Below are positions 32,947-48,700 of a stretch of DNA of 64,000 bases, piece by piece; within the stretch, counting starts at the first letter, position 1, and every line of letters starts with the position of its first letter. The stretch lies in contig JBCCYL010000002.1 of NCBI GenBank assembly GCA_039189765.1, positions 117,768 through 181,767 on the forward strand. Reading direction: 5' to 3'. The notes below the pieces were generated by a model. The model searched no databases. It saw nothing but the letters and a program-made list of their open reading frames with translations, and was not told where the DNA came from. The translations under genes and the position numbers were made by a program. The DNA comes from Cyanobacteria bacterium P01_F01_bin.150. GTDB lineage: Bacteria > Cyanobacteriota > Cyanobacteriia > CAKZMO01.

Positions 32947-34914
32947 ATGTCAAACTTTCGTGCAGTGATTCTTACCGCACTTCCTGTTGAATTTGAGTCT
33001 GTGCGAGAGTTCTTGCCTAAGAGTGAGGAAGTTTGTCATCCAGCCGGAAACATTTATGAGCGTGGGGAGTTCCAAGGGAATCACTGCCTCTGGGATGTGG
33101 GCATTGCAGAAGTGGGAATGGGAGATGCGGGAGCTGCTTTTGAGACGGAACGAGCGATCTCTTTTTTTAATCCCGACGTTATTTTATTTGTGGGGGTTGC
33201 AGGTGGAATCAAAGATGTTGAGATTGGAGATGTCGTTGCGTCCACCAAAGTTTATAACTATGAGTCTGGAAAGGCGAAAGAAACGTTTAATCCCCGACCA
33301 GAGACAGGATTAAGCTCCTATGCACTGATTCAGCGGGCTATGGCAGAGCGCCGAAGTCGTGGTCAGGAGTGGCTGAGCCGTCTTAAATCTAAGCCCCAAA
33401 AACTGCCTAAGGTGAAGGTCGGGCCGATCGCTGCTGGAGAGAAAGTGATTGCCTCTAAGAAATCAGAGGTATATAAGCTTGTGGAAAAGCAATATGGTGA
33501 TGCTCTGGCGGTTGATATGGAGGGGTATGGCTTTCTAAAGGCCGCTCATGCCAATGAACATCGAGCCGTGGCAATGGTGGTGCGGGGTATTTCTGATCTA
33601 ATTGAGGGCAAGAACGATGAGGAGAATCAGGAACCAGAAGACATTCGCCAAGAAAAAGCATCTCGACATGCCAGTGCATTTGCATTCCAGCTACTGGCAA
33701 ATTTCACCCCGCAAGGAAGGTTAATTGAGGCTCCCTCAGAGGCTCAGCAGGTATCACCTCAACCTTGGGATTCGCTCTTCAACAGTTTTGATAATGTTGA
33801 TCCTGAAAGGCTTCAAACGTTTGCATCTTGCTTGGAAGAGGTATTGCCGCCTTTACAACGAGATCTTTTCCCGGAATTGAGTCAGAAGACGACGATGAAT
33901 CTTAAAACACTTCTTTCTGTAGTGGAGCGTCTTAATAGTGTAGAGCGTCTTGATAGTGTGGGTCTGCTTGTGAAATGGGTAGAGCTTATTGTGCGTGAGC
34001 CAGAAGAGCGATCTGATGATGAATTATCGGGACTTGGTTTATCTGATTTACAAGCATGGTGCGACAAACATCGTCCTTCTGTTAGGGAGCCAGAGCCAGA
34101 GCCGGAGCCAGAGAGATTGGAGTATCTGCTGATTACCCTGGAACCCAGGGATGATGACGATACAGTGTTTCTGACCGCAGAAATTCAGGCTACGAATGGC
34201 AAGTTACTCAGTAATAATCTTTTGCCTCCGGGTCAAAAATGTTCTATCGATGACCCATCTGAATCGTTATCTGAAGCCATTAATAAAGCGGGGAAAGTTA
34301 AAGCCGTTGAAATTTTCTTATCATGGCGGCATTTTCGCAAACCAATTCATGAGTGGAAAATCAATCGAGGTTTGGACGATATACATCTGAACGTGTTCAG
34401 AAATGTATTGCTGCGATCGCTTGATAGGTGTCTAGAAAAGAAATACAAGTATTTGGTAGCTGAATGGACCGAAAGGCTCCGTAGTCAGTGGGAACAACTA
34501 CCCTCCTGTGAGAATCGGGTCTTAGAAGATTATTGCCATAATGTGACGGCGTTGGATTTGGATTTTTTAAGGAGTACCTTGGTCCCAGAAGAATCTAAAT
34601 ATCTGATTTTGCACTTCTTGGATGAACTGCCAGAAGAACTTGACGAGTTAAGGAAGCTAGTTAGTATCTTAATGGAGTCAGGCATTCCTATCTGCTTATG
34701 GCCGCGTGATGAGCCGATTCAATCTGAGAGCGTTCCAGAATCCCTTGCAACACTTCTTTGCGATATGAACGTGCTGCGCCAGCCAAGCCGCTTGGCGGCT
34801 AGTATTCGAAAACTCGATACTCCTTTGTCAAATTTAGGTTTACTATGCGAGTGTCCTTACCGATTACCTGGTTTGGTGGATTGGAAAAGTGGCCGTTTGC
34901 GCCAGCCTGCTTAG
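32947..34914 (+). CDS. PNP/MTA-SAH nucleosidase effector fused to a putative vWA-MoxR-associated protein (VMAP) C-terminal region
   Basis: ILTALPVEF, FVGVAGG, GDVV, AVDMEG.G and VRGISD nucleosidase motifs. The C-terminal VEIFL...PIHEW...LRSLDR and GIPICLW.R segments resemble VMAP-C, and the gene precedes MoxR and vWA. Confidence 0.8.
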   Translation: MSNFRAVILTALPVEFESVREFLPKSEEVCHPAGNIYERGEFQGNHCLWDVGIAEVGMGDAGAAFETERAISFFNPDVILFVGVAGGIKDVEIGDVVASTKVYNYESGKAKETFNPRPETGLSSYALIQRAMAERRSRGQEWLSRLKSKPQKLPKVKVGPIAAGEKVIASKKSEVYKLVEKQYGDALAVDMEGYGFLKAAHANEHRAVAMVVRGISDLIEGKNDEENQEPEDIRQEKASRHASAFAFQLLANFTPQGRLIEAPSEAQQVSPQPWDSLFNSFDNVDPERLQTFASCLEEVLPPLQRDLFPELSQKTTMNLKTLLSVVERLNSVERLDSVGLLVKWVELIVREPEERSDDELSGLGLSDLQAWCDKHRPSVREPEPEPEPERLEYLLITLEPRDDDDTVFLTAEIQATNGKLLSNNLLPPGQKCSIDDPSESLSEAINKAGKVKAVEIFLSWRHFRKPIHEWKINRGLDDIHLNVFRNVLLRSLDRCLEKKYKYLVAEWTERLRSQWEQLPSCENRVLEDYCHNVTALDLDFLRSTLVPEESKYLILHFLDELPEELDELRKLVSILMESGIPICLWPRDEPIQSESVPESLATLLCDMNVLRQPSRLAASIRKLDTPLSNLGLLCECPYRLPGLVDWKSGRLRQPA

Positions 34915-34936
34915 CCCTATATGTTTTGTAAGTTCT

Positions 34937-36151
34937 ATGTCTAACTGGAAATTTTTTACTGGTCAACTAAAGCAAGATAATACGCCTCGGCAATCTCCAT
35001 TGGAGCCAATTGGGGAGCGACCGGCTTGGCGGCAGTTTATGGCTAAGGACGAGTTTGAAAAAACGTGGGCAAAGGCAAGTAAGGCTCGATGGAAGGCATT
35101 GCGGAGTGAGGGGCGACTGGACACGCGATCACGAGAAAAGGGGCAGAGCTTTCGGATTCGGCAAATGGATAATGGCCAGTCTGAGATTCAGACGGCGGTG
35201 AATTCGGCATTGGCTTTGCGGCGTCCACTATTGATTACGGGCAATCCAGGGTCGGGGAAGACATCGTTGGCCTATGCGATCGCCTACGAACTCAATCTAG
35301 GCCCTGTCTTGCTATGGCCCATTACTACCCGCACCAGGTTATCGGATGCGCTCTATCAGTATGATGCGATCGCCCGTTTGCAGGATACTCAGTTTGATAA
35401 GGCGGAACTGGAGTTACAACTGCTATTGGCGAAGGCGGACGATAAAACGCCAGATCGCACCAAAATCGAAGCGCTTAAAAAAGGCCGCAACCTGGGCGAT
35501 TATATTCAGCTTGGGCCCGTGGGAACTGCGTTTCTGCCGTCCCATTTACCCCGTGTGTTGTTAATTGACGAGATTGACAAGAGCGAGTTAAACCTGCCCA
35601 ATGATCTGCTGAATTTGTTTGAGGAAGGCAGCTACAACATTCCAGAATTGGCCCGACAAAAGAGTAGTGCAAAGGTGTCGGTGCGGACGGCAGATGATGA
35701 GCTATCGGCGGATATTGTTAAGGGCAAGGTGACCTGTTACGAATTTCCATTGGTTATTTTGACCAGTAATGGGGAACGGGACTTTCCTCCAGCGTTTCTG
35801 CGTCGCTGTTTGCGGATTAATATGCCTGACCCCACGGAAAGTGATGTGCTGGAGCGTATTGTTGGGGCACACTTTGAATGCGCTGAACATCTGGAGGGAG
35901 AGCGTTCCTGGCCTGAATTAAAAGAGGATATTCGACCGCTGATTGAGGCGTTTGCTAAGGACCTTGGACGCAAGAAATCGTCTTTAGCGACGGATCAACT
36001 GCTGAATTTAATCTATATGGTGCGTCAGTCCCAAATTAGTGTCACTGAGGCCATGGGTGATGAGAGCCAGCACAAGGAAAAAACAGCGGAATTAGACACT
36101 CTCAAAGCCATCTTGCTGCGTCGTCTCACAGGGGAAGCGGGTCGCAAATGA
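34937..36151 (+). CDS. MoxR family AAA+ ATPase
   Basis: LRRPLLITGNPGSGKTSLA, LLIDEIDK and TSNGERDFPPAFLRRC motifs. Confidence 0.92.
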   Translation: MSNWKFFTGQLKQDNTPRQSPLEPIGERPAWRQFMAKDEFEKTWAKASKARWKALRSEGRLDTRSREKGQSFRIRQMDNGQSEIQTAVNSALALRRPLLITGNPGSGKTSLAYAIAYELNLGPVLLWPITTRTRLSDALYQYDAIARLQDTQFDKAELELQLLLAKADDKTPDRTKIEALKKGRNLGDYIQLGPVGTAFLPSHLPRVLLIDEIDKSELNLPNDLLNLFEEGSYNIPELARQKSSAKVSVRTADDELSADIVKGKVTCYEFPLVILTSNGERDFPPAFLRRCLRINMPDPTESDVLERIVGAHFECAEHLEGERSWPELKEDIRPLIEAFAKDLGRKKSSLATDQLLNLIYMVRQSQISVTEAMGDESQHKEKTAELDTLKAILLRRLTGEAGRK

Positions 36152-39087
36152 GCACAGAGCAGTTTGTCGCAGCATTGAGTGAGTGTGACCTCAATCCCAC
36201 AGAGATCGCGGATATTCTCTGGCTAGCGCTGCGTCAACTGGATTCTGCTGAGCAATTTGGTGAGGATAAGACTAATGATGGCCAGGAGGATGGGGCTAGA
36301 GGCGATGATGGCCAGGAGGATGGGGCTGGAGACGATGATGGCCAGGAGGATGAGGCTGGAGACGATGATGGCCAGGAGGATGAGGCTGGAGACGATGATA
36401 GCCAGGAGGATGGGGCTGAAGACGATGATGGCCAAAACGCTGTAGAAGATGGCGCGGCTGGTGGTGATCTTCCCCCTGGCGATGACGATGAAGAAGAGAG
36501 CGGAGAAGAAACCGGGGACGAGGATAAGGATGACGGCTCTGACCAACAGTCGTCCTTTGATATTGCTGCACAGGATGCTTCGGGGGTCTTGCCAGAAAAA
36601 GCGGTCCCCATTTCGGTTCCTGATGCAGGTTTTCTAGAGGAAACGTTACCGCTGGTGCGGGCCTTGCGACCCATCCTAAAGCAAATTGCCTCTGAGACCG
36701 TTAGCTATGTGGATGAGGCGGCAACGGTGGATCGGATTGCGGAGACAAATATCTGGTCGCCGGTGCTGCAACCGGATTATGAACCGTGGTTTGATGTAGC
36801 CTTTGTAATCGATAGCAGTGCTTCCATGCATTTATGGGAGCGGTTGATTCAGGATATTCAGCGGTTGTTGCGCTGCTATGGGTCATTTCGAGACTTTCGA
36901 GTTTGGCAGTTGAAGGTGACAGAAGGCCAGGTGGGTATTTGTGCGGTGCCGGATCAGGTTATGCGCCATCCAAGGGCGTTGCTTGCGCCGGATGGTCGTC
37001 GGCTGACGTTGGTGTTTAGTGACTGTACGGCGGAATATTGGTGGGATGGAACGCTTCAGCCGATGCTGGCCCTGTGGGGAGAGTCCATGCCGACATCAAT
37101 TTGGCAGGTGCTGCCCGATTGGATGTGGAAGCGTACGGCGTTGGGGGTTGGGGAGTATGTGGCGATTCGAAATCGGATTCCTGGGGCGACAAATGGAGAG
37201 CTAAACCCGATCTTTTTATCATTACGTCCATCGATTTTATCGCCAGCGGAGCCGTCTCAGGCGGCAGATAGTTTGGTTGGGGCTTCACCAGCTAAGCCGA
37301 TTTGTGTGCCTGTGATTACTACGGAGTCCGAGTCCCTGAGTGCTTGGAGTCGAATGGTGGCAGGGGATCGGCGGTCGTCAACGCCGGGGTTTGTGTTGCC
37401 GGAGAGGGGCTGGGAGAAGGAGCGGCCAACGCCATCAGATGATTTACAAGGGGATGCCGATCAGCAAGAGGTTGCAGACCAACAGTTGGAGCAATTTCGC
37501 TTACGAGCGACCCCTGAGGCCCGTCGATTGGCGGCGTTATTATCGGCTGCGCCGGTGATTACCTTGCCGATTATGCGGTTGATTCGAGCGTCCATGTTGT
37601 CTGGCACGTCTCCATTGCCGGTGGCTGAGGTCTTTTTAGGCGGGTTGTTAAAGCGGACATCCACCCCAGGGCAGACGCCAGATAAGCCGATAGATACTGA
37701 GCTGGTCCAGTATGATTTGCCGATTGAAACGCGGAATCGCCTGTTGGATGTGTTGCCAAAGGTGGAGGCGATTGAGGTGATCGAGGCGGTGTCCCAACAT
37801 ATTTCTGAGCAGTTGGGGCTGACTCTGATGGATTTTCGGGCATTGCTGTTATCTCTTGACTTAAAACAGGAGGCGGATCAGTATGACCTAAAAGCGTTTG
37901 CCCGTGTGACGGCCCAGATTTTACGAAAGTTGGGGAAGGAGTATGCGGCCTTAGCGGACCAATTTGAGGTTCCTCTGGAGCCTGATATCCCTCGGACACA
38001 GAAATGGTTGGATCTGCCCCTGGAGGAGTTTGAGCACGAATCGGCTAGGCTTGTGGCTTTGCCTAGTGAGCCGAGGGCGATCGCCCTTACCATAGTTACG
38101 TTAAGCATTCAGCCAGACTATGCTGCGGGGCTGGAAGAGGTGGAAGACCGTCAGGCTGAAGTTGTGACGCTGGTGGTTGACGAAGCAGAGCAACCATCAG
38201 TATTTGATCAGTTAGAACCGTTTCCAATTCAGATTGCAACGGTTGAACGTCAAGGGTCTGAGTGGGTGGTTAACTATACCGAATCAGAGGCCGATCGCTA
38301 TATTGAGACCTTGCCAGGGGGAATTTCTTTGGAATTAGCAAGGATTCCATCTGGGGGCTTTATGATGGGGGCACCAGAGGATGAACCAGAGCGCCATGGG
38401 CGGGAAACTCAGCATCGAGTGACGATCGCTTATGACTTTTTGATGGGGCGCTATCCCGTGACTCAGGCTCAGTGGCGGGTGGTTGCATCCTCCCTGCCTC
38501 AGATTGTTCGGAATCTAAAACCAGCCCCATCTAAATTTAAAGAGGAGAAGCGTCCGGTTGAACGAGTCAGTTGGCATGAGGCGATAGAGTTTTGTAATCG
38601 CCTTAATCGCTATTTTGAGGGGCGCTCTATCCCGGAGGGGTACGAATATCGCTTACCGAGCGAAATTGAATGGGAATATGCCTGTCGTGCAGAAACCACT
38701 ACTCCCTTTTATTTTGGGCCAATGATTACGACCGAGGTAGCAAATTATAGCGGTAGCTCCTATGACGATGGACCTACTGGAAAAAGGCGAGGAGAAACCA
38801 CCCCAGTTACCGAGTTTAACCATGCCAATCAATTTGGCCTATCGGATATGCATGGCAATGTTTGGGAATGGTGCTTAGATGAGTGGTGGCATCAGAATTA
38901 CAGGGGTGCCACCCTCGATGGCAGTACGTGGCTAGAGAACACCCCACAAAGTAATAATAGGCATGTTAGGCGTGGCGGGTCTTGGATCTCTCGTCCGAGG
39001 TACTGTCGGTCTGCCTATCGTCTCCACGACCACTCCGACCTTCGCTCCGACTCTCTTGGTTTTCGGGTTGTTCTCGCCCCTCAATGA
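36148..39087 (+). CDS. vWA (SAV_2336-type) protein with C-terminal FGE-sulfatase/CLec domain; putative DGR target 1
   Basis: EIADILWLA N-terminus, RALRP, DE.ATV..IA, vWA VIDSSASM..W, FSDC...W; C-terminal RLPSE.EWEYACRA, DMHGNVWEW, RGGSW and GFRVV. Overlaps the MoxR stop (ATGA). Confidence 0.88.
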   Translation: MSTEQFVAALSECDLNPTEIADILWLALRQLDSAEQFGEDKTNDGQEDGARGDDGQEDGAGDDDGQEDEAGDDDGQEDEAGDDDSQEDGAEDDDGQNAVEDGAAGGDLPPGDDDEEESGEETGDEDKDDGSDQQSSFDIAAQDASGVLPEKAVPISVPDAGFLEETLPLVRALRPILKQIASETVSYVDEAATVDRIAETNIWSPVLQPDYEPWFDVAFVIDSSASMHLWERLIQDIQRLLRCYGSFRDFRVWQLKVTEGQVGICAVPDQVMRHPRALLAPDGRRLTLVFSDCTAEYWWDGTLQPMLALWGESMPTSIWQVLPDWMWKRTALGVGEYVAIRNRIPGATNGELNPIFLSLRPSILSPAEPSQAADSLVGASPAKPICVPVITTESESLSAWSRMVAGDRRSSTPGFVLPERGWEKERPTPSDDLQGDADQQEVADQQLEQFRLRATPEARRLAALLSAAPVITLPIMRLIRASMLSGTSPLPVAEVFLGGLLKRTSTPGQTPDKPIDTELVQYDLPIETRNRLLDVLPKVEAIEVIEAVSQHISEQLGLTLMDFRALLLSLDLKQEADQYDLKAFARVTAQILRKLGKEYAALADQFEVPLEPDIPRTQKWLDLPLEEFEHESARLVALPSEPRAIALTIVTLSIQPDYAAGLEEVEDRQAEVVTLVVDEAEQPSVFDQLEPFPIQIATVERQGSEWVVNYTESEADRYIETLPGGISLELARIPSGGFMMGAPEDEPERHGRETQHRVTIAYDFLMGRYPVTQAQWRVVASSLPQIVRNLKPAPSKFKEEKRPVERVSWHEAIEFCNRLNRYFEGRSIPEGYEYRLPSEIEWEYACRAETTTPFYFGPMITTEVANYSGSSYDDGPTGKRRGETTPVTEFNHANQFGLSDMHGNVWEWCLDEWWHQNYRGATLDGSTWLENTPQSNNRHVRRGGSWISRPRYCRSAYRLHDHSDLRSDSLGFRVVLAPQ
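36276..36437 (+). repeat. Coding 30-bp acidic tandem repeat (DDGQED(G/E)AGD, about 5 copies)
   Basis: GATGATGGCCAGGAGGATG(G/A)GGCTGGAGAC units. Confidence 0.9.
38971..39087 (+). repeat. Putative DGR variable region VR1
   Basis: 117-bp block homologous to 39879, 41217 and 42181, with variation at codon positions 1-2. Confidence 0.75.
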
Positions 39088-39158: not shown

Positions 39159-39995
39159 ATGGCGACATCCTCCAGTACGGCTCCTAGGAAAATTCGGGAA
39201 GAACGTGAGACGACGACGTTTCGGTTTGGGCAAGAGCGGTTGAATGATGAGGTTCTGCTGAATTTGGTGCGGATTCTGGCTGGGGGTTTCATTATGGGGT
39301 CGCCAGAGGGAGAAGAGGGGCGTTCTGATGCTGAAGGTCCTCAGCGCTTGGTGTCAGTGTCGGAGTTCTGGATGGGGCAGTATCCCGTGACTCAGCAAGA
39401 ATGGCGGATTGTGGCTGGATATACCAAGGTTGAACGAGATATGGAGCTTGACCCATCTCATTTTAAGGGAGGCCGTCGTCCGGTCGAGAGAGTATCCTGG
39501 GATGATGCGGTGGAGTTTTGTCAACGCCTCTCGCAGCATACAGGCCGTAACTACCGCTTACCTTCGGAAGCTGAATGGGAATATGCCTGTCGGGCGGAAA
39601 CTAAGACCCCCTTTCATTTGGGTCTAACCCTTTCAGCCAAATACTCTAACTACGACGCCAGGGAAGTGTATGGTCTTGGGACACAGGGAGAATATCGAAG
39701 GGGAACTGTGGATGTAGATCACTTTCAGGTGACCAATAACTTTGGATTGGTCGGGATGCATGGCAATGTGTGGGAATGGTGCCAGGACCACTGGCATGAA
39801 AGCTATAAGGGTGCCCCCCTCAATGGTAGTGCATGGATGGAGAACACCTCACATAGTAAGAATAGGGACTGCGTATTTCGTGGCGGGGCTTGGTTAACTC
39901 GTCCGAGAGACTGTCGGTCTGCCTTTCGTGGCCACAATCTTCCCGCCTATCGCCGCCGCAATCTCGGTTTTCGGGTAGTTCTCGCCCCCCAATGA
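39159..39995 (+). CDS. Stand-alone FGE-sulfatase/CLec protein; putative DGR target 2
   Basis: F.MGS, YPVTQ, RLPSEAEWEYACRA, MHGNVWEW, RGGAW and GFRVVLAPQ. Confidence 0.9.
   Translation: MATSSSTAPRKIREERETTTFRFGQERLNDEVLLNLVRILAGGFIMGSPEGEEGRSDAEGPQRLVSVSEFWMGQYPVTQQEWRIVAGYTKVERDMELDPSHFKGGRRPVERVSWDDAVEFCQRLSQHTGRNYRLPSEAEWEYACRAETKTPFHLGLTLSAKYSNYDAREVYGLGTQGEYRRGTVDVDHFQVTNNFGLVGMHGNVWEWCQDHWHESYKGAPLNGSAWMENTSHSKNRDCVFRGGAWLTRPRDCRSAFRGHNLPAYRRRNLGFRVVLAPQ
39879..39995 (+). repeat. Putative DGR variable region VR2
   Basis: 117-bp homologous block; the most diverged of the four. Confidence 0.7.
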
Positions 39996-40035: not shown

Positions 40036-40087
40036 GGTGCCCAGACTCTGGCTCCCGGAGCATTCCCAGCCAGAGTCTGGGAATCAG
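40036..40087. repeat. REP-like element (short, internally deleted form)
   Basis: GGTGCCCAGACTCTGGCT...TTCCCAGCCAGAGTCTGGGAATCAG. Confidence 0.7.
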
Positions 40088-40111
40088 GGGGATCAGAGGG
40101 GCGGCTGAGGA

Positions 40112-40240: not shown

Positions 40241-40333
40241 ACTGAAGATTAAATAATGTGGTCTTAACGTTCCCAATTGAATTGGAAGATTGCATACTGA
40301 AAGGCAGATATGTTCGCATTCCTCCAGTCCACC

Positions 40334-40442
40334 CTGGTGCCCAGACTCCGGCTGGGTGCAATGGACGAGACTCTGGCTCGTCTGCCTTTGTTTTTGGAGC
40401 CGGAGTCTCCAAGAGGATTCCCAGCTAGAGTCTGGGAATGAG
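40334..40442. repeat. REP/REPIN-like element
   Basis: CTGGTGCCCAGACTCCGGCTGGGTG...TTCCCAGCTAGAGTCTGGGAATGAG; homologous to 43847-43960. Confidence 0.8.
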
Positions 40443-40481
40443 GTGTGTAAGAGTTGTAAGTTGATTGGAGTATTCCCTTCA

Positions 40482-41333
40482 ATGGTTGTTTTCATCCCCA
40501 AAAAACGAACGCACACCGACCAGCGCTTTTTTGAAGCCTTGGGGAATAACCAACGATTGGAAATGGTGTTAATTCAGGAGGGAACCTTTACGATGGGATC
40601 TCCTGATAATGAGGAAAAACGCAGAGATGCGGAAGGTCCACAGCGTGAGGTAACGGTTTCAACTTTTCTGATGGGCCGTTATCCCGTGACCCAATCCCAG
40701 TGGCGGCAAGTGTCTAAATTTGACCCCGTTGACCCGGATATTGAATTTCCCCCTAATCCATCTCGCTTCAAGAATAAGCAAGATAGCGATCATCGTCCGG
40801 TGGAGCAGGTGAATTGGCATCAGGCCAATGAGTTCTGTGCTCGCCTCAATCAGTTTCTTGAATCCCGCTCCAGCACTCCATTGAATCGAGCCTATCGCTT
40901 ACCGTCCGAAGCAGAGTGGGAATATGCTTGTCGAGCTGGAACTACCACTCCTTTTTATTGCGGCGAAACCATCTCCACAGACGTCGCCAATTATGATGGC
41001 AACTACACCTACGGTAGAGGGCCAAAAGGCCGATATCGAGAAGAAACTACCCCTGTCGGCTCTTTGGAGTCTGGCAATTCCTGGGGACCGTGTGATATGC
41101 ATGGCAATGTTTGGGAATGGTGCCAAGACCACTGGCATGAAAATTACAAGTATGCCCCCCTCGATGGCAGTGCATGGCTGGAGAACACCCCACAAAGTGA
41201 GAATAGGCGGGTGAACCGTGGCGGGTCTTGGCTCGCTCGTCCATGGTTCTGTCGGTCTGCCTGTCGCAACCGCTACCACCCCGACGGTCGCGACGCCTAT
41301 CTTGGTTTTCGTGTTGTTCTCGCCCCCCAATGA
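40482..41333 (+). CDS. Stand-alone FGE-sulfatase/CLec protein; putative DGR target 3
   Basis: ATG at 40482 with an upstream GGAG (the ORF-track extension to 40290 runs through a REP); LEMVLI..GTFTMGS, RLPSEAEWEYACRA and GFRVVLAPQ. Confidence 0.9.
   Translation: MVVFIPKKRTHTDQRFFEALGNNQRLEMVLIQEGTFTMGSPDNEEKRRDAEGPQREVTVSTFLMGRYPVTQSQWRQVSKFDPVDPDIEFPPNPSRFKNKQDSDHRPVEQVNWHQANEFCARLNQFLESRSSTPLNRAYRLPSEAEWEYACRAGTTTPFYCGETISTDVANYDGNYTYGRGPKGRYREETTPVGSLESGNSWGPCDMHGNVWEWCQDHWHENYKYAPLDGSAWLENTPQSENRRVNRGGSWLARPWFCRSACRNRYHPDGRDAYLGFRVVLAPQ
41217..41333 (+). repeat. Putative DGR variable region VR3
   Basis: 117-bp homologous block. Confidence 0.75.
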
Positions 41334-41439: not shown

Positions 41440-42297
41440 ATGGTTTCCTCCCCTCCCACCGAATCCAATCCCAAATGCCATATTGACCGAGAACCGATTG
41501 AGGTGATATCGGTTCAGCAGCCGTTAAATAACGACGTGAGTTTGGTCTTGGTGCAGATTCCAGAGGGGGATTTTATGATGGGGTCCCCAGAAGATGAACT
41601 CGAACGAAGCGATGCAGAAGGGCCGCAGCACCCGGTGCATATTCAGGAATTTTGGATGGGGCAATATCCCGTAACCCAGGCAGAATGGCGCATTGTGGCC
41701 AGCTATCGCAAAGTAAACCATGACTTAGCGGCTGCCCCCTCCGAATTCAAAGGAGATCGATTGCCCGTCGAGAACGTGTCTTGGGATGATGCGGTGGAGT
41801 TTTGTCAGCGCCTCTCCCAAAACACCGGATTGAACTATCGCCTCCCCACCGAAGCCGAATGGGAATACGCCTGTCGAGCTAAAACCACAACCCCCTTCCA
41901 TTTTGGCAAAACCATCACCACTGAGTATGCCAACTATCGAGGAACCGATGATGAGTATGGAAATTCTGGTTCCTATGGGGGTGGCCCCAAAGGGGGCTAT
42001 CGAGAGGAAACAACTTCTGTAGGCTCCTTTGAGGTCACTAACCACTTTGGCCTTGCCGATATGCACGGCAATGTGTGGGAGTGGTGCCAGGACCACTGGC
42101 ATGACAACTATAAGGATGCCCCCTCCGATGGCAGTGCTTGGCTGGGCAACACCCCACAAAGTATTAATATGCGTGTAATTCGTGGCGGGTCTTGGCTCGA
42201 TCGTCCATGGTACTGTCGGTCTGCCTATCGTGGCCGCAACCCCCCCGGCCTTCGCCACCTCAATCTTGGTTTTCGTGTAGTTCTTGCCCCCCAATGA
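41440..42297 (+). CDS. Stand-alone FGE-sulfatase/CLec protein; putative DGR target 4
   Basis: FMMGSPEDE, RLPTEAEWEYACRA, DMHGNVWEW, RGGSW and GFRVVLAPQ. Confidence 0.9.
   Translation: MVSSPPTESNPKCHIDREPIEVISVQQPLNNDVSLVLVQIPEGDFMMGSPEDELERSDAEGPQHPVHIQEFWMGQYPVTQAEWRIVASYRKVNHDLAAAPSEFKGDRLPVENVSWDDAVEFCQRLSQNTGLNYRLPTEAEWEYACRAKTTTPFHFGKTITTEYANYRGTDDEYGNSGSYGGGPKGGYREETTSVGSFEVTNHFGLADMHGNVWEWCQDHWHDNYKDAPSDGSAWLGNTPQSINMRVIRGGSWLDRPWYCRSAYRGRNPPGLRHLNLGFRVVLAPQ
42181..42297 (+). repeat. Putative DGR variable region VR4
   Basis: 117-bp homologous block. Confidence 0.75.
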
Positions 42298-42511: not shown

Positions 42512-43726
42512 TTACTCATAACTTACTAATAGCTCTAATCCCTTCGCTCCACGCAGTCGAAAATGGTTTAGAACTTGGGGATTTTGAATACCCAACTCTG
42601 CGACAAAATCAGTTTCTCCAGTACTGGTTTCCTCAAAATAAGCTGCTGCCGGGGCATCGCCATCTAAAAACTGAATCACCGCATTGGGGCCATACTTTTG
42701 CTTTGCAACCTTTAAAGCATCATGCATTAGTAACGAGGGGGTAATCATCGAACCCAAATATTCTTTCGTTTGGTCATCAAAAATACGCAGTCCTCTGGCG
42801 ACAGATTGGGTTTCGTGGAACAAAAACGGTCCGCCGCGTCGCCCACCACCCCTCTCAAATACCGCTTCAATATCATCAGGGTGGCGGATAACACCATGGG
42901 TATCAATCGTAAAGGCCACAACATCTGGCCGTTGTTCCAGGTGTTCTAGCTCTGGCCGAATCTGTTGTTTAATGCTCTCTAACTTCTCATCAGGCATTTC
43001 CCCAGCCCCTTCAAGATGACTAAAATCCAAGTACTCTATACGACCATCCTGATACGTCACAATCCCTGACAACAAAATATTAGGCGCAGACTGACCTGAA
43101 TTATCAGACGATCGATAAATGGGTAGCTCTTCCCCCTGATTTTGGGATAAACGATTCGGGTTGAAGTAGTGATAGCTCAACGCTGTAGCAGCTTTGGTGC
43201 CCGGCTCAAAGCCCTTAAACGTAGTGCCAAAGATGCCGAGCACTTGCCCGCCCGTACGTTCAATTTCAGCCTGAACGGTTTTATAGCTATGCTCTTCTAG
43301 TAGGGGTAGAAGTAGGGTGTTATTGCCTGGTTCTATAGTAATCGTGGGACCTTGCGCATACCAATTGAGCGGGGTATCAGCCATCACTGGCCGGCCATCA
43401 ACTTTGAGATATTCAGGACCGGGGGCAATTTGGTAGGCATGGCCATTTTTATCCAGCACAATCCGTGGACGTCCACTGCTTTGTACGGATTGAACCGTCA
43501 CGGTCCGAATAATCCGTTCCCAGTCGGGGTCAAAATCATAAAAAGATAGGGGGAATGATTCTTCTTCCAGTAGTAAAGACGGTGAGTCTAAATCTTGATA
43601 GTCTACCGGGTCCGACATCAGCCGAAACTGAGCGGTTTCAACCACAATGGCTTGAGTCCCTGCACAATTAGATAATAGGACGGATGCCCCCAACAGAACC
43701 GACAATTTCCCAAATGAAACAGACAT
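42512..43726 (-). CDS. Hypothetical lipoprotein
   Basis: Signal peptide with LSNC lipobox-like motif; no family recognised. Confidence 0.6.
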   Translation of the reverse strand: MSVSFGKLSVLLGASVLLSNCAGTQAIVVETAQFRLMSDPVDYQDLDSPSLLLEEESFPLSFYDFDPDWERIIRTVTVQSVQSSGRPRIVLDKNGHAYQIAPGPEYLKVDGRPVMADTPLNWYAQGPTITIEPGNNTLLLPLLEEHSYKTVQAEIERTGGQVLGIFGTTFKGFEPGTKAATALSYHYFNPNRLSQNQGEELPIYRSSDNSGQSAPNILLSGIVTYQDGRIEYLDFSHLEGAGEMPDEKLESIKQQIRPELEHLEQRPDVVAFTIDTHGVIRHPDDIEAVFERGGGRRGGPFLFHETQSVARGLRIFDDQTKEYLGSMITPSLLMHDALKVAKQKYGPNAVIQFLDGDAPAAAYFEETSTGETDFVAELGIQNPQVLNHFRLRGAKGLELLVSYE

Positions 43727-43846
43727 AAACTAGCTCAATCCTTGGAATTCGACGTGCTACTAATAGCTATCTCTGGCCCTTGGGTAGATATTCAAAAAAC
43801 AGCCAAAGGCTGGGAATGAGAGGTAGGTGCGATCGCCTCTTCTCTC

Positions 43847-43960
43847 CTGGTGCCCAGACTCCAGCTGGGTGCCCAAGACGAGCCAGAGTCTCGTCTGCCT
43901 TCTGCCTGGATGTGGAGCCAGAGTCTCCAAGCAGATTCCCAGACTACGGCTGGGAATGAG
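43847..43960. repeat. REP/REPIN-like element
   Basis: CTGGTGCCCAGACTCCAGCTGGGTG...TTCCCAGACTACGGCTGGGAATGAG. Confidence 0.8.
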
Positions 43961-43980
43961 GGATTGTTTGCTTTCTGATG

Positions 43981-44748
43981 TCAAACTTCGGTGTTCAGGC
44001 GTCTATAAGCAAGTACCCCCAAGAGCAGCAGCGTCACTGCAACCGCAGTTATCCAAATCGTTGGAGAATCGGGATGCCGCAGGGCGATCGCCCCATAGGC
44101 CCAAGCAAACACCAAAATAAACGCCACATCCCTAAATCCCACCGCAATAAAGCTAGCGACCACACCGCCCACCACCAACATAATCGCAGTCCAGACCGCG
44201 CCACTAATGCCCCAGCCACTCCACTCAGCTGCATACAATGCACTGGCAACATTTACGATAGTGGCCACTGAAATCCACGCCGTGTAGATACTAAAGGGAA
44301 TCTGCTCCAGCCAGCGCCGCTTTGTGGACAGTCGCACCTCGCCAACGCCAAGCTTACGGTAAATCAGCAGCAGCGGCACTAAAATCGCCAGCATCATCAC
44401 CACCGAAAGGGCAAACAGCTTTAGGGTAAAGCAGAAAATCCAGAAAACTTGGGCAATACATGCCGTAATCAGCAGGCTATTGATCCGCCAGAATTTAGGA
44501 TTTCGCTGCTGGGTCGGCCCCAGTTGATAAATACCGTAGGCAATTAGCTCAACATAAATTAGGCCCCAAATAATAAACGCGTAGTTCGCAGGCGTAATTA
44601 ATACCCCAGACAGTACCGTATTGGCTATTGTCCCTACGTTTTGGCCACCCAAGGGAAAGATATTCGACAGGGTGTTAACCGCTAATGTGGCGATAATGGC
44701 AAGAAGAGTGGCGATCGCCAGTCCCTGCCTAGGTTCAGAATTCTGCAT
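43981..44748 (-). CDS. Tryptophan-rich sensory (TspO/MBR-like) membrane protein
   Basis: ITPANYAFIIWGLIY and PFSIYTAWISVATIVN; multiple transmembrane segments. Confidence 0.75.
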   Translation of the reverse strand: MQNSEPRQGLAIATLLAIIATLAVNTLSNIFPLGGQNVGTIANTVLSGVLITPANYAFIIWGLIYVELIAYGIYQLGPTQQRNPKFWRINSLLITACIAQVFWIFCFTLKLFALSVVMMLAILVPLLLIYRKLGVGEVRLSTKRRWLEQIPFSIYTAWISVATIVNVASALYAAEWSGWGISGAVWTAIMLVVGGVVASFIAVGFRDVAFILVFAWAYGAIALRHPDSPTIWITAVAVTLLLLGVLAYRRLNTEV

Positions 44749-44850
44749 AATCTCATCAAAAATATCACCCAGCACGTTGGGATAGCTTAAAGCATTACCC
44801 AGTGCCAGGCTCAAAATGTAAGTTGAAGTCCGAACCACAATACCTCACTA

Positions 44851-45690
44851 TTAAGTAGAGGTGTCAACCTCTGAATATGTCTGGGCTACCCCTCTCAGCC
44901 AGTTAATCGCTTGATGTCTCTCCCTTGCGATGCTTTGACATTGATAGAAACGATCGGCAGGTGCTCGCGAGATGGGGACATTGTCAATTGCCAAATCATC
45001 GTCTGAGAACGATATGCCATCGACTTTCAAGGGTCCAAACCATGCTGTTTCTGCAAATACTCGGAAATTCATCGCCTGCCGACGGATGGCAAAGTCGCGG
45101 ATGCGCCAATGTACGGCCAGTTGCATGTCTGAGAATCGGTCCAGCTTATCTGCGCTGCGTAACGTCAACGCCTGAGCACGGTGTTTTGCATCATCTTCAA
45201 GCAGAAAAAGAGAATTAGCAACCTCGGCTGGATCGACCATTTGATCATGTTGAGGCATCTCGATCGCATTTAAGCTCCAAGCAAGGACCGCCAATCCTTC
45301 AGAACGCCACAGTCCATTGGCCACCGTTTGAGGATCAAGTGAGCCAATGTCAGCTTCCATCATTCCACGTTCCGATGGTTCTAACTCTGAATAGAGTTCC
45401 ATTGTGCTAATCCAATGTATGAGCCGAGCATAGAGACGCTCTGCCTCTATCGGATCATCAAGCGTCTCAACAAATGAACGACTGACAACAGCACCAATGG
45501 CCCAAGCCCTACGTTGAACTCGCGTTTCAGAAGGCCGTCCAATCTCCAAATCTTTTTCCACGCTCTTTTCCTCTGCAATGCCATTATGATCTGAGGCGCA
45601 GTTGCGGAGCACTCCATGTCTCACAACGGCGTTAAGGATTTTCCGGCTTAAGTTATCGTTATTTCCGGAGAATTTATTGAGGATGCACAA
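44851..45690 (-). CDS. DUF4272-like protein
   Basis: LEPSER, WRSEGL.VLAW.L, HWRIRD and ERHQAINWL...Y.EVDTST. Confidence 0.7.
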   Translation of the reverse strand: MCILNKFSGNNDNLSRKILNAVVRHGVLRNCASDHNGIAEEKSVEKDLEIGRPSETRVQRRAWAIGAVVSRSFVETLDDPIEAERLYARLIHWISTMELYSELEPSERGMMEADIGSLDPQTVANGLWRSEGLAVLAWSLNAIEMPQHDQMVDPAEVANSLFLLEDDAKHRAQALTLRSADKLDRFSDMQLAVHWRIRDFAIRRQAMNFRVFAETAWFGPLKVDGISFSDDDLAIDNVPISRAPADRFYQCQSIARERHQAINWLRGVAQTYSEVDTST

Positions 45691-46054: not shown

Positions 46055-48700
46055 ATGATTACAGAAGAGTTACACTCGCAACTCGATTGGCAACAGCCGC
46101 CCCTGAGCTGGTTGTCCCCTGAACAACAAAAGCAAGTAGAAGCCCACGCCACCCCCCAGCGTTTTAAGTTAGGGGAGGTGATTTGGGATACGGATAAAAC
46201 TGAGCATCAGTTTTTAATTTTGTCCGGTAATGTCCGACTAATGCCCGATGGTGGTAGTCCTATTCTGCTGAAAGCGGGGGATTGGTTTGGGGCATTGCCA
46301 CAGTTGAGCGATCGATGGAAAGCCCGTGGTGCCAGCAAAGAAGTCGTGGTCGTTCAATGGCCAGCCCAAATCTGGACCGATATGCTTGACGATCGTTTGC
46401 AGCAGTCCCAAAAAGGTCGCAATGGACGTAATGGTCGCAATGGTGACAATACTGCCAATGGTCGCAATGGTCATAATGGAGTTGCCAGTGGAAACATCAT
46501 TGATTCGTCTCAGTCCCTAAAGCGCTATTGGACAACGTTGCGATCGCGCTACCAGCCCAACTTTTCTGACGCCCCCCAGCCCGTCGATGGTTATCCCTTT
46601 GTGGCCGGAGTCAATACCGCTGCCGCCTGCTTGACCATGCTCTCCCAGCATTTTGGCACCCCAGTACAGCTAGAGTGGATGCAGCGACAGCTCCGCAGTC
46701 AGCGACCTCGCCATGTCATTGACGGATCCGAAAAAGTAGGGCTGCAAATACGGCGGTTACTGGTTGCCACCTGGGACGACCTGAGGCAAATTACCTTACC
46801 AGGGCTTACCCTATGGCAGGGAGAACGATGGGTGGTGGTCTACGAAGCGCGGGGCGATCGCCTCGTGATTGCTGACCCGATCAATCCCGACTACGTTTGT
46901 GAAAGCGTGCCCCGTGAGGTGGTGCAAGAAAACTGGGACGGAGAGCTGTGGCAGGTTGAGCTAGTTAAAAAGCAGGACAAATTTAACCTAAGCTGGTTTT
47001 TGCCAGCGGTGATGCGCTATAAAGGCCTGCTATTTGAGGTGTTGGTGGCCTCCTTTACCCTGCAGCTATTGGGATTAACCACCCCGATCCTGACCCAGGT
47101 GGTAATCGATAAGGTCATGGTGCAGCAGAGCATTCCAACGCTGGATGTAATTGCGATCGCCATGCTCGGCGTTGCCACCTTTGAGGCGATTCTGGGCATC
47201 CTGCGCATGTTTATCTTTACCCACACCACCAATCGCCTAGACCTTAGCCTTTCCGCCCAGCTTTTCCGCCATCTGCTGCGTCTGCCCCTGTCCTACTTTG
47301 AAGCCCGGCGTGTCGGGGATACCGTGGCCCGAGTGCAGGAGCTAGAGGAAATCCGCCAGTTTCTCACTAGCACTGCCCTTACCGTAGTTTTAGACAGTAT
47401 CTTTAGCGTCATCTATTTATTGGTGATGCTTTACTACAGCCCTAAACTAACAGGCGTGGCCCTGGCGGTGATTCCCCTATTTGCTATTCTTACCCTTACC
47501 GCTACACCGATCCTGCGCAACTGGCTCAACGAAACTTTTAACCGCAGCGCCGATAGTCAGTCTTTCCTGGTGGAAACGGTAACGGGCATCCATACGGTAA
47601 AGGCCCACGCCGCTGAAAAGGCAACGCGCGATCGCTGGGAAGGTCTCTATGCGCGATTTATTCGCACCGGATTTAAGGCCAACACCACCGCCAATATCAG
47701 CAACAATATTGGTAATTTTCTTACCAGCTTCTCCAGTCTGCTGCTGCTTTGGGTGGGAGCACATCTGGTCATCAAGCAGGAATTTACCATCGGTCAGCTT
47801 ATTGCCTTCCAAATGCTTTCCGCTCGGGTCACCGGGCCATTGCTACGTCTGGTGCAGCTCTGGCAAAATCTCCAGGAAGTGTTGCTGGCAGTCGATCGCA
47901 TTGGCGATATCCTTAACGTCCCCCCCGAAGCCGAACAGGGGACGGGTCTGGTACTACCCACCCTACGCGGTGCCGTCACCTTTGACCAGGTCTTTTTTCG
48001 CTACAACCAGGAACAGGACTCTATTCTAAAAGGGGTATCGTTTAAGGTGGACCCAGGCATGTTTGTGGGCCTAGTGGGTCGCAGCGGCTCCGGCAAAAGC
48101 ACCCTTTCTAAGCTAATCCAGCGACTCTACGATACTGAGTCCGGTCGCATTGCCATCGACGGCTTTGATATCAAAAGCGCCGATCTTGCCTCCCTGCGGC
48201 CCCAAATTGCCGTGGTGCTCCAGGATGATTTTCTATTTAATGGCACCGTCCTCGACAATATCACCCTAGGCAGCCATAATGCCGATGCGGAAGACGTGAT
48301 TCGTGCCGCCCAAATGGCGGTGGCCCACGACTTTATTCTTGATCTGCCCCACGGCTATGAAACCAACGTAGGGGAACGGGGCATTGCCCTATCGGGCGGT
48401 CAGCGCCAGCGGATTACCCTAGCCCGGCTATTTCTCTCCCAGGCACCTATTCTGATTTTGGATGAGGCCACTAGCCACTTGGATGCGGAAACGGAACAGC
48501 AGGTGTTGGAGAACTTACGAAGTATATCGAGCGATCGCACTGTCTTCCTAATTGCCCACCGTTTTGCGCCGCTAAAAAATGCCGATCTGATCCTGGCGAT
48601 GGAGAAAGGCGTTGTTGTTGAACGCGGCACCCACGAGTCTTTACTCCGGGATAAAGGACTATATTATTCCCTTTATCAACGACAGCAGGCGTCCGTTTAA
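46055..48700 (+). CDS. HlyB-family type I secretion ABC transporter with cNMP-like and C39-like domains
   Basis: N-terminal cNMP-like region, C39-like AAACLTML, ABC transmembrane domain (QVVIDKV, RRVGD), GRSGSGKST, LSGGQRQR and LDEATS. Confidence 0.92.
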   Translation: MITEELHSQLDWQQPPLSWLSPEQQKQVEAHATPQRFKLGEVIWDTDKTEHQFLILSGNVRLMPDGGSPILLKAGDWFGALPQLSDRWKARGASKEVVVVQWPAQIWTDMLDDRLQQSQKGRNGRNGRNGDNTANGRNGHNGVASGNIIDSSQSLKRYWTTLRSRYQPNFSDAPQPVDGYPFVAGVNTAAACLTMLSQHFGTPVQLEWMQRQLRSQRPRHVIDGSEKVGLQIRRLLVATWDDLRQITLPGLTLWQGERWVVVYEARGDRLVIADPINPDYVCESVPREVVQENWDGELWQVELVKKQDKFNLSWFLPAVMRYKGLLFEVLVASFTLQLLGLTTPILTQVVIDKVMVQQSIPTLDVIAIAMLGVATFEAILGILRMFIFTHTTNRLDLSLSAQLFRHLLRLPLSYFEARRVGDTVARVQELEEIRQFLTSTALTVVLDSIFSVIYLLVMLYYSPKLTGVALAVIPLFAILTLTATPILRNWLNETFNRSADSQSFLVETVTGIHTVKAHAAEKATRDRWEGLYARFIRTGFKANTTANISNNIGNFLTSFSSLLLLWVGAHLVIKQEFTIGQLIAFQMLSARVTGPLLRLVQLWQNLQEVLLAVDRIGDILNVPPEAEQGTGLVLPTLRGAVTFDQVFFRYNQEQDSILKGVSFKVDPGMFVGLVGRSGSGKSTLSKLIQRLYDTESGRIAIDGFDIKSADLASLRPQIAVVLQDDFLFNGTVLDNITLGSHNADAEDVIRAAQMAVAHDFILDLPHGYETNVGERGIALSGGQRQRITLARLFLSQAPILILDEATSHLDAETEQQVLENLRSISSDRTVFLIAHRFAPLKNADLILAMEKGVVVERGTHESLLRDKGLYYSLYQRQQASV

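Follow-up and report, generated by a model that had tools for sequence, protein, structure and literature searches.

How can a hypervariable binding domain that has no signalling part of its own be read out by the system that encodes it? The question is raised by a locus in a 64,000-nt stretch of DNA (the window) from Cyanobacteria bacterium P01_F01_bin.150 (contig JBCCYL010000002.1, positions 117,768 to 181,767), where a protein with a vWA module and a C-terminal FGE/CLec domain, referred to here as the scaffold, is encoded together with three FGE/CLec proteins that stand alone (the free FGE proteins FGE1, FGE2, and FGE3). The initial annotation of this sequence had pointed to four strand-like motifs in the scaffold linker and proposed that one of them completes the scaffold's own FGE domain in cis and that the other three complete the free proteins in trans. 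The analysis reported here partly supports this interpretation. At the level of sequence comparison, the motifs of the family are established as paralogues of one strand, the free proteins lack this strand, and the number of spare motifs matches the number of free FGE genes across loci; the hairpin formed in cis is seen in a confident structure model. That the spare motifs complete the hairpins of the free FGE proteins in trans and tether them as heads to the scaffold is a reading to which we assign a probability of about 0.5.

Strand motifs in the scaffold linker

Translation of 38014-38253 gave exactly the 80 residues quoted in the initial annotation, corresponding to scaffold residues 623-702, and the four motifs ahead of the FGE domain were recovered at residues 623-636, 641-654, 662-677, and 689-701. 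The fourth runs straight into the FGE part, as had been claimed, with EWVVNYTESEADRYIET at residues 705-721. The scaffold and its elements are as follows (PSSM, position-specific scoring matrix; AF2, AlphaFold2).

36148..39087, plus strand: scaffold, 979 aa, with a SAV_2336 N-terminal/vWA part, four-motif linker, beta-hairpin, and FGE/CLec domain (NF041121, PF03781, AF2, Foldseek)
38014..38055, plus strand: motif 1, residues 623-636, LPLEEFEHESARLV, a spare strand-1-like motif (PSSM 9.1; aligned with FEYEVAEFL of relatives)
38068..38109, plus strand: motif 2, residues 641-654, EPRAIALTIVTLSI, degenerate (by alignment position, homologue of FPPLxxFxFxxAxL)
38131..38178, plus strand: motif 3, residues 662-677, LEEVEDRQAEVVTLVV, prefix lost (by alignment position, homologue of FPPPLQTxEVxVVTIVL)
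38212..38250, plus strand: motif 4, residues 689-701, LEPFPIQIATVER, predicted strand 1 of the cis hairpin (AF2 strand; PSSM 18.4)
38260..38310, plus strand: predicted strand 2 of the cis hairpin, residues 705-721, EWVVNYTESEADRYIET (AF2 strand; the free FGE N-termini begin at the equivalent position)
38341..39072, plus strand: cis FGE-sulfatase/CLec domain with a C-terminal variable region (PF03781, residues 732-975)

The vWA module matches NF041121 over residues 84-557 (368.2 bits; cutoff, 200), and the FGE-sulfatase domain matches PF03781 over residues 732-975 (155 bits). With an alignment of 115 rows, AF2 modelled the scaffold at a mean predicted local distance difference test score (pLDDT) of 85.4; this run replaced one on 9 rows (pLDDT 48.7). 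Residues 690-702 (motif 4) and 705-721 were modelled as two long consecutive strands with pLDDT values of at least 95, directly before the FGE fold, and these consecutive strand assignments are read as a predicted beta-hairpin. The model thereby agrees with the proposal that motif 4 completes the scaffold's own domain in cis, as strand 1 of a confidently modelled hairpin. F692 in motif 4 and W706 in strand 2 are invariant in 13 homologues. A Foldseek search with the model retrieved PvdO (5hha, E 4.6e-21) and TvpA (2y3c, E 9.6e-19), and FGE was also matched. A sequence search of the PDB for a solved hairpin found no counterpart by sequence, PvdO and TvpA aligning only from ELARIPSGG onward.

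The window was compared with 38 further loci (L001-L038), 12 from a genome scan and 26 from cyanobacterial plasmids, giving 39 loci in all. The 13 close homologues of the scaffold (35-50% identical over the searched region) and the 12 genomic loci align position for position, and the motifs of these relatives are variants of P-L-[QE]-x-F-E-F-x-V-A-T-h (consensus PLQTFEFxVATI), with positions 1 to 4 reading FPLxxFEYEVAxxL, FPPLxxFxFxxAxL, FPPPLQxExFxVVTh, and LExFxFxVATh. For 13 of the 18 family members, no more than 12 shuffles in 1000 equalled the repeat score that was observed. A first iterated PSSM was dropped because it took in a conserved helix, GLKxFAxVTAQILR, that ends the vWA module. 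The iterated PSSM converges on LQTFEFTVATIVR and gives three to four in-register matches per linker of the relatives, and the three best upstream matches of a leave-one-out PSSM built from motif 4 of 17 relatives fall exactly on motifs 1-3. With a PSSM retrained on linkers cut after the helix at the end of the vWA module (99% shuffle threshold, 8.1), motif 1 (9.1) and motif 4 (18.4) of the window both exceed the threshold. The PSSM penalises unseen residues strongly, and in L013, L015, L021, and L035 it fails to pick up motifs that can be recognised by eye.

Searched against 1.84 billion proteins, a profile of the linker and hairpin matched 80 cluster representatives at E ≤ 1e-3, indicating that the motifs are conserved well under 50% identity. 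Many of these representatives carry the series FPPLxTLxFxxGQLV, FPPPLQTExFxVxTI, and LExFxFxVATL followed by W.I.R....A.RY.E.L, and the motif series is also found behind N-terminal domains other than vWA. Judged from these alignments, the spare motifs are conserved paralogues of a single strand, strand 1, of which the window holds a diverged version. Motifs 2 and 3 of the window are the most degenerate copies seen, and degenerate forms like them recur in P0180. The motif region of the window has diverged disproportionately, with a motif/vWA identity ratio of 0.37 in eight pairs that include the window versus 0.58 in 28 other pairs, and the similarity among the motifs of the window alone is weak.

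Two very long proteins also match this profile, P0198 (2005 aa) in 8 separate stretches and P0199 (3742 aa) in 11; these may be long strand-motif arrays or merely repetitive.

Conserved, proline-flanked, acidic segments of low pLDDT are typical of linear motifs, and the repeats might accordingly bind another partner, such as the MoxR pore, the metal-ion-dependent adhesion site of the vWA domain, VMAP-C, or a processing peptidase. Peptide capture by vWA and cleavage of the vWA protein by VMAP peptidases are proposed in the relevant parts of Kaur et al. (PMC7159879; also PMC10907252). Against such a role, the PSSM gave no motif match in four vWA scaffolds without an FGE domain (those of L016-L018 and the vWA protein of L027), and spare motifs are also present in the non-vWA scaffolds of L026 and L028, exactly one in each, beside one free FGE gene each. 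On this evidence, the motifs are tied to FGE and not to vWA/MoxR. In addition, they share the sequence of the FGE hairpin's strand 1, and binding to another partner would leave the match between motif number and free-FGE number (see below) unexplained. We consider this explanation distinctly improbable.

Another possibility is that motifs 1-3 serve the scaffold only, as extra strands (a meander or spacer) of an N-terminal, all-beta extension to its FGE domain, and that the free FGE proteins work alone. The single-chain model does contain short strands at residues 645-648 (pLDDT about 54) and 676-679, and in scaffolds with two motifs the copies lie only about nine residues apart and could form a hairpin. 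The pLDDT of motifs 1-3 is nevertheless low (about 41 for motif 1, about 51-54 for motif 2, and about 53-68 for motif 3; overall range, 36-68) although the region is covered by the alignment. Moreover, whole domains stand in the motif region of other loci: VMAP-C in L010 and a GUN4-like segment in L025 are inserted between motifs, and an HTH-like segment lies between strands 1 and 2 in L015 and L024. As the motifs are kept despite these insertions, separate sockets fit better than one compact sheet.

Two of the domain rearrangements deserve description in their own right. In L010 (9287-12889; Acaryochloris marina MBIC11017 pREB2), a complete VMAP-C (PF20028, 107 bits, residues 672-881) lies between motifs 2 and 3, so that the vWA protein itself bears the domain that otherwise marks the third component. 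In L004 (9299-11497; Leptolyngbya sp. PCC 7375), strand 2 and the FGE domain are replaced by Cas_csx3 (PF09620, 92.8 bits).

Free FGE proteins and the missing strand

The free FGE proteins are encoded downstream of the scaffold gene, and PF03781 is matched by all four FGE proteins of the locus, the scaffold included, at 155-188 bits.

39159..39995, plus strand: FGE1, free FGE/CLec protein of 278 aa without strand 1 (PF03781, residues 36-274; N-terminus)
40482..41333, plus strand: FGE2, free FGE/CLec protein of 283 aa from the methionine of MVVFIPKK, without strand 1 (PF03781; the mechanical open reading frame (ORF) begins at 40290, and the start at 40482 was chosen by homology to P0070)
41440..42297, plus strand: FGE3, free FGE/CLec protein of 285 aa without strand 1 (PF03781, residues 37-281; N-terminus)

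All three start just past the equivalent of motif 4, at the equivalent of residues 705-721, and lack motif 4, in agreement with the initial annotation. The stop-to-stop frames of FGE1 and FGE3 are open for only 2 and 4 codons before the methionine, respectively, leaving no room for motif 4, and no motif was found in the long upstream frame of FGE2 (from 40290). The absence extends beyond the window. None of the 107 short proteins (≤300 aa) among the 120 best FGE1 homologues has an N-terminal strand-1 PSSM match (0 of 107), all of them beginning a few residues before strand 2; the PSSM likewise found no match in seven free plasmid FGE proteins, and in the fetched loci strand 1 is missing from every free FGE ORF whose N-terminal box could be read. 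CLec-only targets of diversity-generating retroelements (DGRs) are common, and 7836 of 8000 scored candidates (152-487 residues) match FGE1 at E ≤ 1e-20. The F.FEVVTV-type strand that the initial annotation had attributed to such domains is present in the multi-domain FGE proteins P0047, P0115, P0130, and P0017. In the FGE proteins of this family, the hairpin consensus is PLQxFEFxVATh for strand 1 and W/h-x-h-x-R....A.RY.E.L for strand 2.

A mechanism can be proposed from these features. The N-terminal hairpin of every FGE domain in the family would depend on a strand 1. The free proteins keep strand 2 but encode no strand 1, and scaffold motifs 1-3, upstream of the scaffold's own strand 1 (motif 4), would represent one spare strand 1 per free protein. 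Each spare may act as a socket: by pairing with the strand 2 of a single free FGE protein, it would complete that protein's hairpin in trans. Up to three extra variable ligand-binding heads could in this way be tethered to one scaffold that is read by MoxR and the effector. The physical pairing in trans, its specificity and stoichiometry, and the consequence for signalling are what we infer. Co-folding of four chains, namely linker residues 612-684 (motifs 1-3, as the partner) and FGE1, FGE2, and FGE3, with an alignment supplied for each, gave scores of 0.73, 0.74, and 0.74, and the controls gave 0.00 and 0.00 when the partner was replaced and 0.70 when chain 4 was replaced, a margin under the required 0.20; the four-chain design made the chain-4 control uninformative, and the scores favour neither binding nor its absence.

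Spare motifs and free FGE genes across loci

The proposed docking implies a relation between the number of spare strand-1 motifs in the scaffold (E) and the number of strand-1-less FGE genes within 10-12 kb (F). Of the 39 loci, 26 could be evaluated and 13 were set aside, namely L007, L009, and L012 (contig ends); L016-L018 (vWA scaffolds without FGE, having neither motif nor free FGE); L027 and L037 (FGE proteins without the hairpin); L034 (scaffold cut by an insertion sequence); L004 (cis FGE replaced by Csx3); L019 (ambiguous); and L036 and L038 (orphan free FGE genes). The two numbers are equal in 24 of the 26 loci, with values from 0 to 3.

E = F = 3: window, L001, L006, L008, L010
E = F = 2: L003, L005, L013, L014
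E = F = 1: L015, L022, L023, L024, L025, L026, L028
E = F = 0: L020, L021, L029-L033, L035
E = 3, F = 2: L002, L011

When F was shuffled among the 26 loci, 24 matches were reached in none of 100,000 permutations (mean, 6.6). Among the loci with free FGE genes, 16 of 18 match, a number that shuffling likewise never reached (0 of 100,000; mean, 6.0). Spare motifs are present in all 18 loci with free FGE genes versus none of the eight without them. Run over the whole proteins, the PSSM found exactly two matches in each of the six plasmid scaffolds that have one free FGE gene, and over all scaffolds of loci without free FGE genes it gave only two weak matches (5.1 and 3.6, in L031 and L032). On a weakly resolved tree of the FGE core, in which only 3 of 22 branches are well supported, the two traits (having spare motifs and having free FGE genes) switch state at five points, and at each of these they switch jointly.

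The initial annotation had put forward a rule for testing, in which linker motifs exceed the downstream free FGE genes by one. This holds in the 24 loci when every free FGE gene is counted and fails when only downstream genes are counted. The downstream-only rule was rejected: in the family of the window it fits the window alone (1 of 9 loci), the other eight loci having one free FGE gene upstream of the operon. FGE1 and FGE3 are a lineage-specific duplicate pair (support 99), and the upstream-type FGE gene found in the relatives is missing from the window. With this gene lost and the duplicate gained, the total remains three.

The counts also bear on the explanation in which motifs 1-3 belong to the scaffold only. 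There, the numerical match would reflect shared ancestry together with the complexity of the loci, and it is true that the count rule rests on only about five independent contrasts. A pure cis element, though, should sometimes occur where free FGE genes are absent, and none of the eight such scaffolds has a spare motif; in addition, the counts agree exactly in 24 of 26 loci. Weighed with the structural evidence given above, this explanation is unlikely.

Equal numbers could also arise by history alone. If units of strand 2 plus FGE had left a tandem array in the scaffold and strand 1 had stayed behind, the motifs would be remnants with no present function. The degenerate motifs 2 and 3 of the window and the surplus motif retained in L002 and L011 agree with such a history, as does the clustering, in the Leptothoe clade, of the cis FGE with the free FGE that comes first downstream (support 97). 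It would, however, require repeated precise excision at the boundary of strands 1 and 2. Further, the motifs are conserved over the 80 cluster representatives under 50% identity and in different scaffold families, which indicates selection, and even the degenerate forms of the window recur in P0180. We regard remnants without function as very unlikely.

Several points weigh against docking in trans. Within the window, the summed motif score was equalled in 81 of 1000 shuffles (z 1.5, not significant), motifs 2 (-12.5) and 3 (-1.3) fail the threshold of the retrained PSSM, and the short modelled strands at 645-648 and 676-679 leave room for pairing in cis. The motif counts were made partly by eye, and the eye and the PSSM disagree for the window, L013, L015, L021, and L035; the spare motif of L025, before the GUN4-like insert, was found on a second reading prompted by a count mismatch. 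One of the genes counted as free, the upstream FGE of L010, is degenerate: it lacks the GxFxMG box, and its branch is long. L002 and L011 have one motif too many, and tblastn found no further FGE copy in these loci of 18.6-20.9 kb. In L004, the strand motifs are retained despite the replacement of the cis FGE by Csx3, and two free FGE genes remain. In the plasmid loci L036 and L038, free FGE genes without strand 1 are present, yet neither a scaffold nor a strong motif was found within 12 kb in six frames, and CLec-only paralogues dispersed through genomes are described by Vallota-Eastman et al. (2020; PMC7517822) in the part concerned with these targets. All eight loci without free FGE genes have non-vWA scaffolds, so that scaffold type is confounded with the trait. 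The strength of the count rule is inflated because the loci are related: independent pairs number five (sign test 0.06, underpowered), two of them on supported branches.

On balance, docking of the free FGE proteins through strand pairing keeps the even odds given at the outset. Somewhat less probable is the more general rule, a split-hairpin socket code in which the DGR-diversified CLec-only proteins abundant in cyanobacteria would be detachable sensor heads and a MoxR-linked scaffold would carry one socket per head.

The surrounding locus and known systems

The 3' ends of the four FGE genes resemble those of DGR targets. The terminal 125-158 nt are shared by all four genes at about 73-83% identity.

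38930-39087, 39838-39995, 41176-41333, and 42140-42297, plus strand: repeated FGE 3' ends, resembling DGR variable repeats

The four ends differ at positions that are A in AAC-rich fragments resembling template repeats in L005 and L010, and this pattern resembles, in sequence terms, a DGR signature. Flanked by free FGE genes, these fragments (L005 13359-13679; L010 13989-14231) encode asparagine-rich FGE C-termini, with AAC codons in runs, and are probably the DGR template repeats of their loci; an ORF scan found no reverse transcriptase inside 10 kb in L010 (the ORFs of L005 fall outside that scan). In the window itself, no fifth copy of the 3' repeat that could serve as template, no Avd, and no RVT family match were found, the last among 36 of the 39 listed ORFs of at least 150 aa (the other three are one copy of a frame already covered and two ORFs that overlap in antisense). 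The retroelement must either be located at another site of the genome or have been lost. Reverse transcriptase and Avd are annotated in the related plasmid loci L013, L015, L023, and L025, and Kaur et al. (PMC7159879), in the section on these elements, note that template repeat and reverse transcriptase may sit elsewhere in the genome.

Two genes precede that of the scaffold.

32947..34914, plus strand: VMAP component with a PNP_UDP_1 nucleosidase-like domain (residues 6-243; Pfam PF01048, 93.9 bits) and VMAP-C (residues 440-617; PF20028, 53.5 bits; cutoff, 27)
34889..36151, plus strand: MoxR-like AAA+ ATPase (Pfam AAA_5, 36.2 bits, cutoff 22; AAA, 29.8 bits)

The VMAP protein is presumed to be the effector of the system. 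Its N-terminal domain resembles methylthioadenosine/S-adenosylhomocysteine nucleosidases, at scores far under the equivalog cutoffs. Nucleosidase domains similar to PNP_UDP_1 are nucleotide-depleting effectors in other defence systems. MoxR orthologues adjoin the vWA gene in 11 of the 12 genome loci, L007 being too short to judge. All three members of a VMAP ternary system are present, namely the MoxR ATPase, the SAV_2336-type vWA protein with helical extensions, and the VMAP-C protein, and the locus is a VMAP-type MoxR/vWA conflict system with a DGR-type variable FGE/CLec sensor domain, of a kind already known.

Several other features of the region were recorded. Six tandem 30-nt repeats at 36245-36464, which share 70-100% identity with the reference copy, code for a DDGQEDGAGD-like acidic decapeptide in the N-terminal linker of the scaffold ahead of the vWA domain; their copy number may vary between strains. 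Short dispersed repeats of families D8 and D9 (49-56 nt, 73-82% identical) occur at 40040-40088 and 40333-40443, in the 487-nt gap before the FGE2 gene, and again about 3.5 kb downstream at 43846-43961, and look like small mobile elements or miniature inverted-repeat transposable elements flanking part of the FGE cassette. Directly after the cassette lie three minus-strand ORFs (42512-43726, 43981-44838, and 44851-45690). Two of them, of 404 and 285 aa, gave no match to Pfam or NCBIfam; the remaining one is a DUF4272 protein. Genes of conflict type elsewhere in the window are:

23601-26270, minus strand: P-loop NTPase of 889 aa with TPR repeats
46055-48700, plus strand: cNMP-binding C39-peptidase ABC exporter
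52265-54859, minus strand: protein of 864 aa with a weak patatin match

VMAP ternary conflict systems composed of MoxR, vWA, and VMAP proteins, with FGS/CLec domains diversified by DGRs, were described by Kaur, Burroughs, Iyer, and Aravind (2020, eLife, PMC7159879). Like the systems covered in that paper, the window encodes, in this gene order, a VMAP-C protein, MoxR, and a vWA protein with an FGS domain fused at its C-terminus, in a cyanobacterial host. It differs from them, as they are described there, in its array of strand-1 motifs, its solo FGS proteins lacking strand 1, and the link between the two, as well as in the PNP_UDP_1 nucleosidase-like N-terminal domain of its VMAP protein and in having neither reverse transcriptase nor template repeat in the window. 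The same paper describes effector-associated domains (EADs), through which stand-alone components are recruited to a core component by a shared small module. The recruitment of solo components to a core component is common to both arrangements, whereas EADs, in that account, are whole, homotypic domains on both partners and here each partner would hold half a hairpin.

A MoxR-associated long target together with at least one CLec-only target in a single DGR locus has been reported (Dore et al., 2024, PNAS, PMC10907252; Vallota-Eastman et al., 2020, PMC7517822), and CLec domains are proposed there as antigen sensors. The window shares this layout of long and CLec-only targets. In the passages of these papers that deal with them, the short targets are separate proteins of unknown role for which no physical docking is proposed; docking is the proposal made here. 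There is also a likeness to Thiohalocapsa DGR 4/5 (PMC10907252), where a vWA target carries three tandem CLec domains in cis, so that there, too, a single vWA scaffold of a VMAP system bears several variable heads. By the account given there, the Thiohalocapsa heads are covalently fused, whereas those of the window would be separate gene products held by strand pairing. A literature search found no paper joining "diversity-generating" with "donor strand" or "strand complementation", and, supplements aside, the coupling of spare strand-1 motifs, strand-1 lack in CLec-only proteins, and docking appears to be undescribed in the text portions of these sources. If true, it would explain how a hypervariable binding domain without a signalling part is read out, and would amount to a multi-specific, modular immune receptor with a valency set by the linker and readable from sequence. 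The rule that sockets equal heads could then be used to predict complexes and their valency.

In donor-strand complementation and beta-strand augmentation, as in chaperone-usher and type V pili, TasA, and archaeal threads, a fold that lacks one strand is completed by another polypeptide. The proposed split hairpin would work in the same way, a likeness in principle and not a class membership: donor-strand systems use an immunoglobulin-like subunit without its last strand, whereas the window has an FGE/CLec fold with an N-terminal hairpin. Compared with donor-strand pilins, the split hairpin would also be cytoplasmic and non-polymerising, with one donor protein offering several different donor strands.

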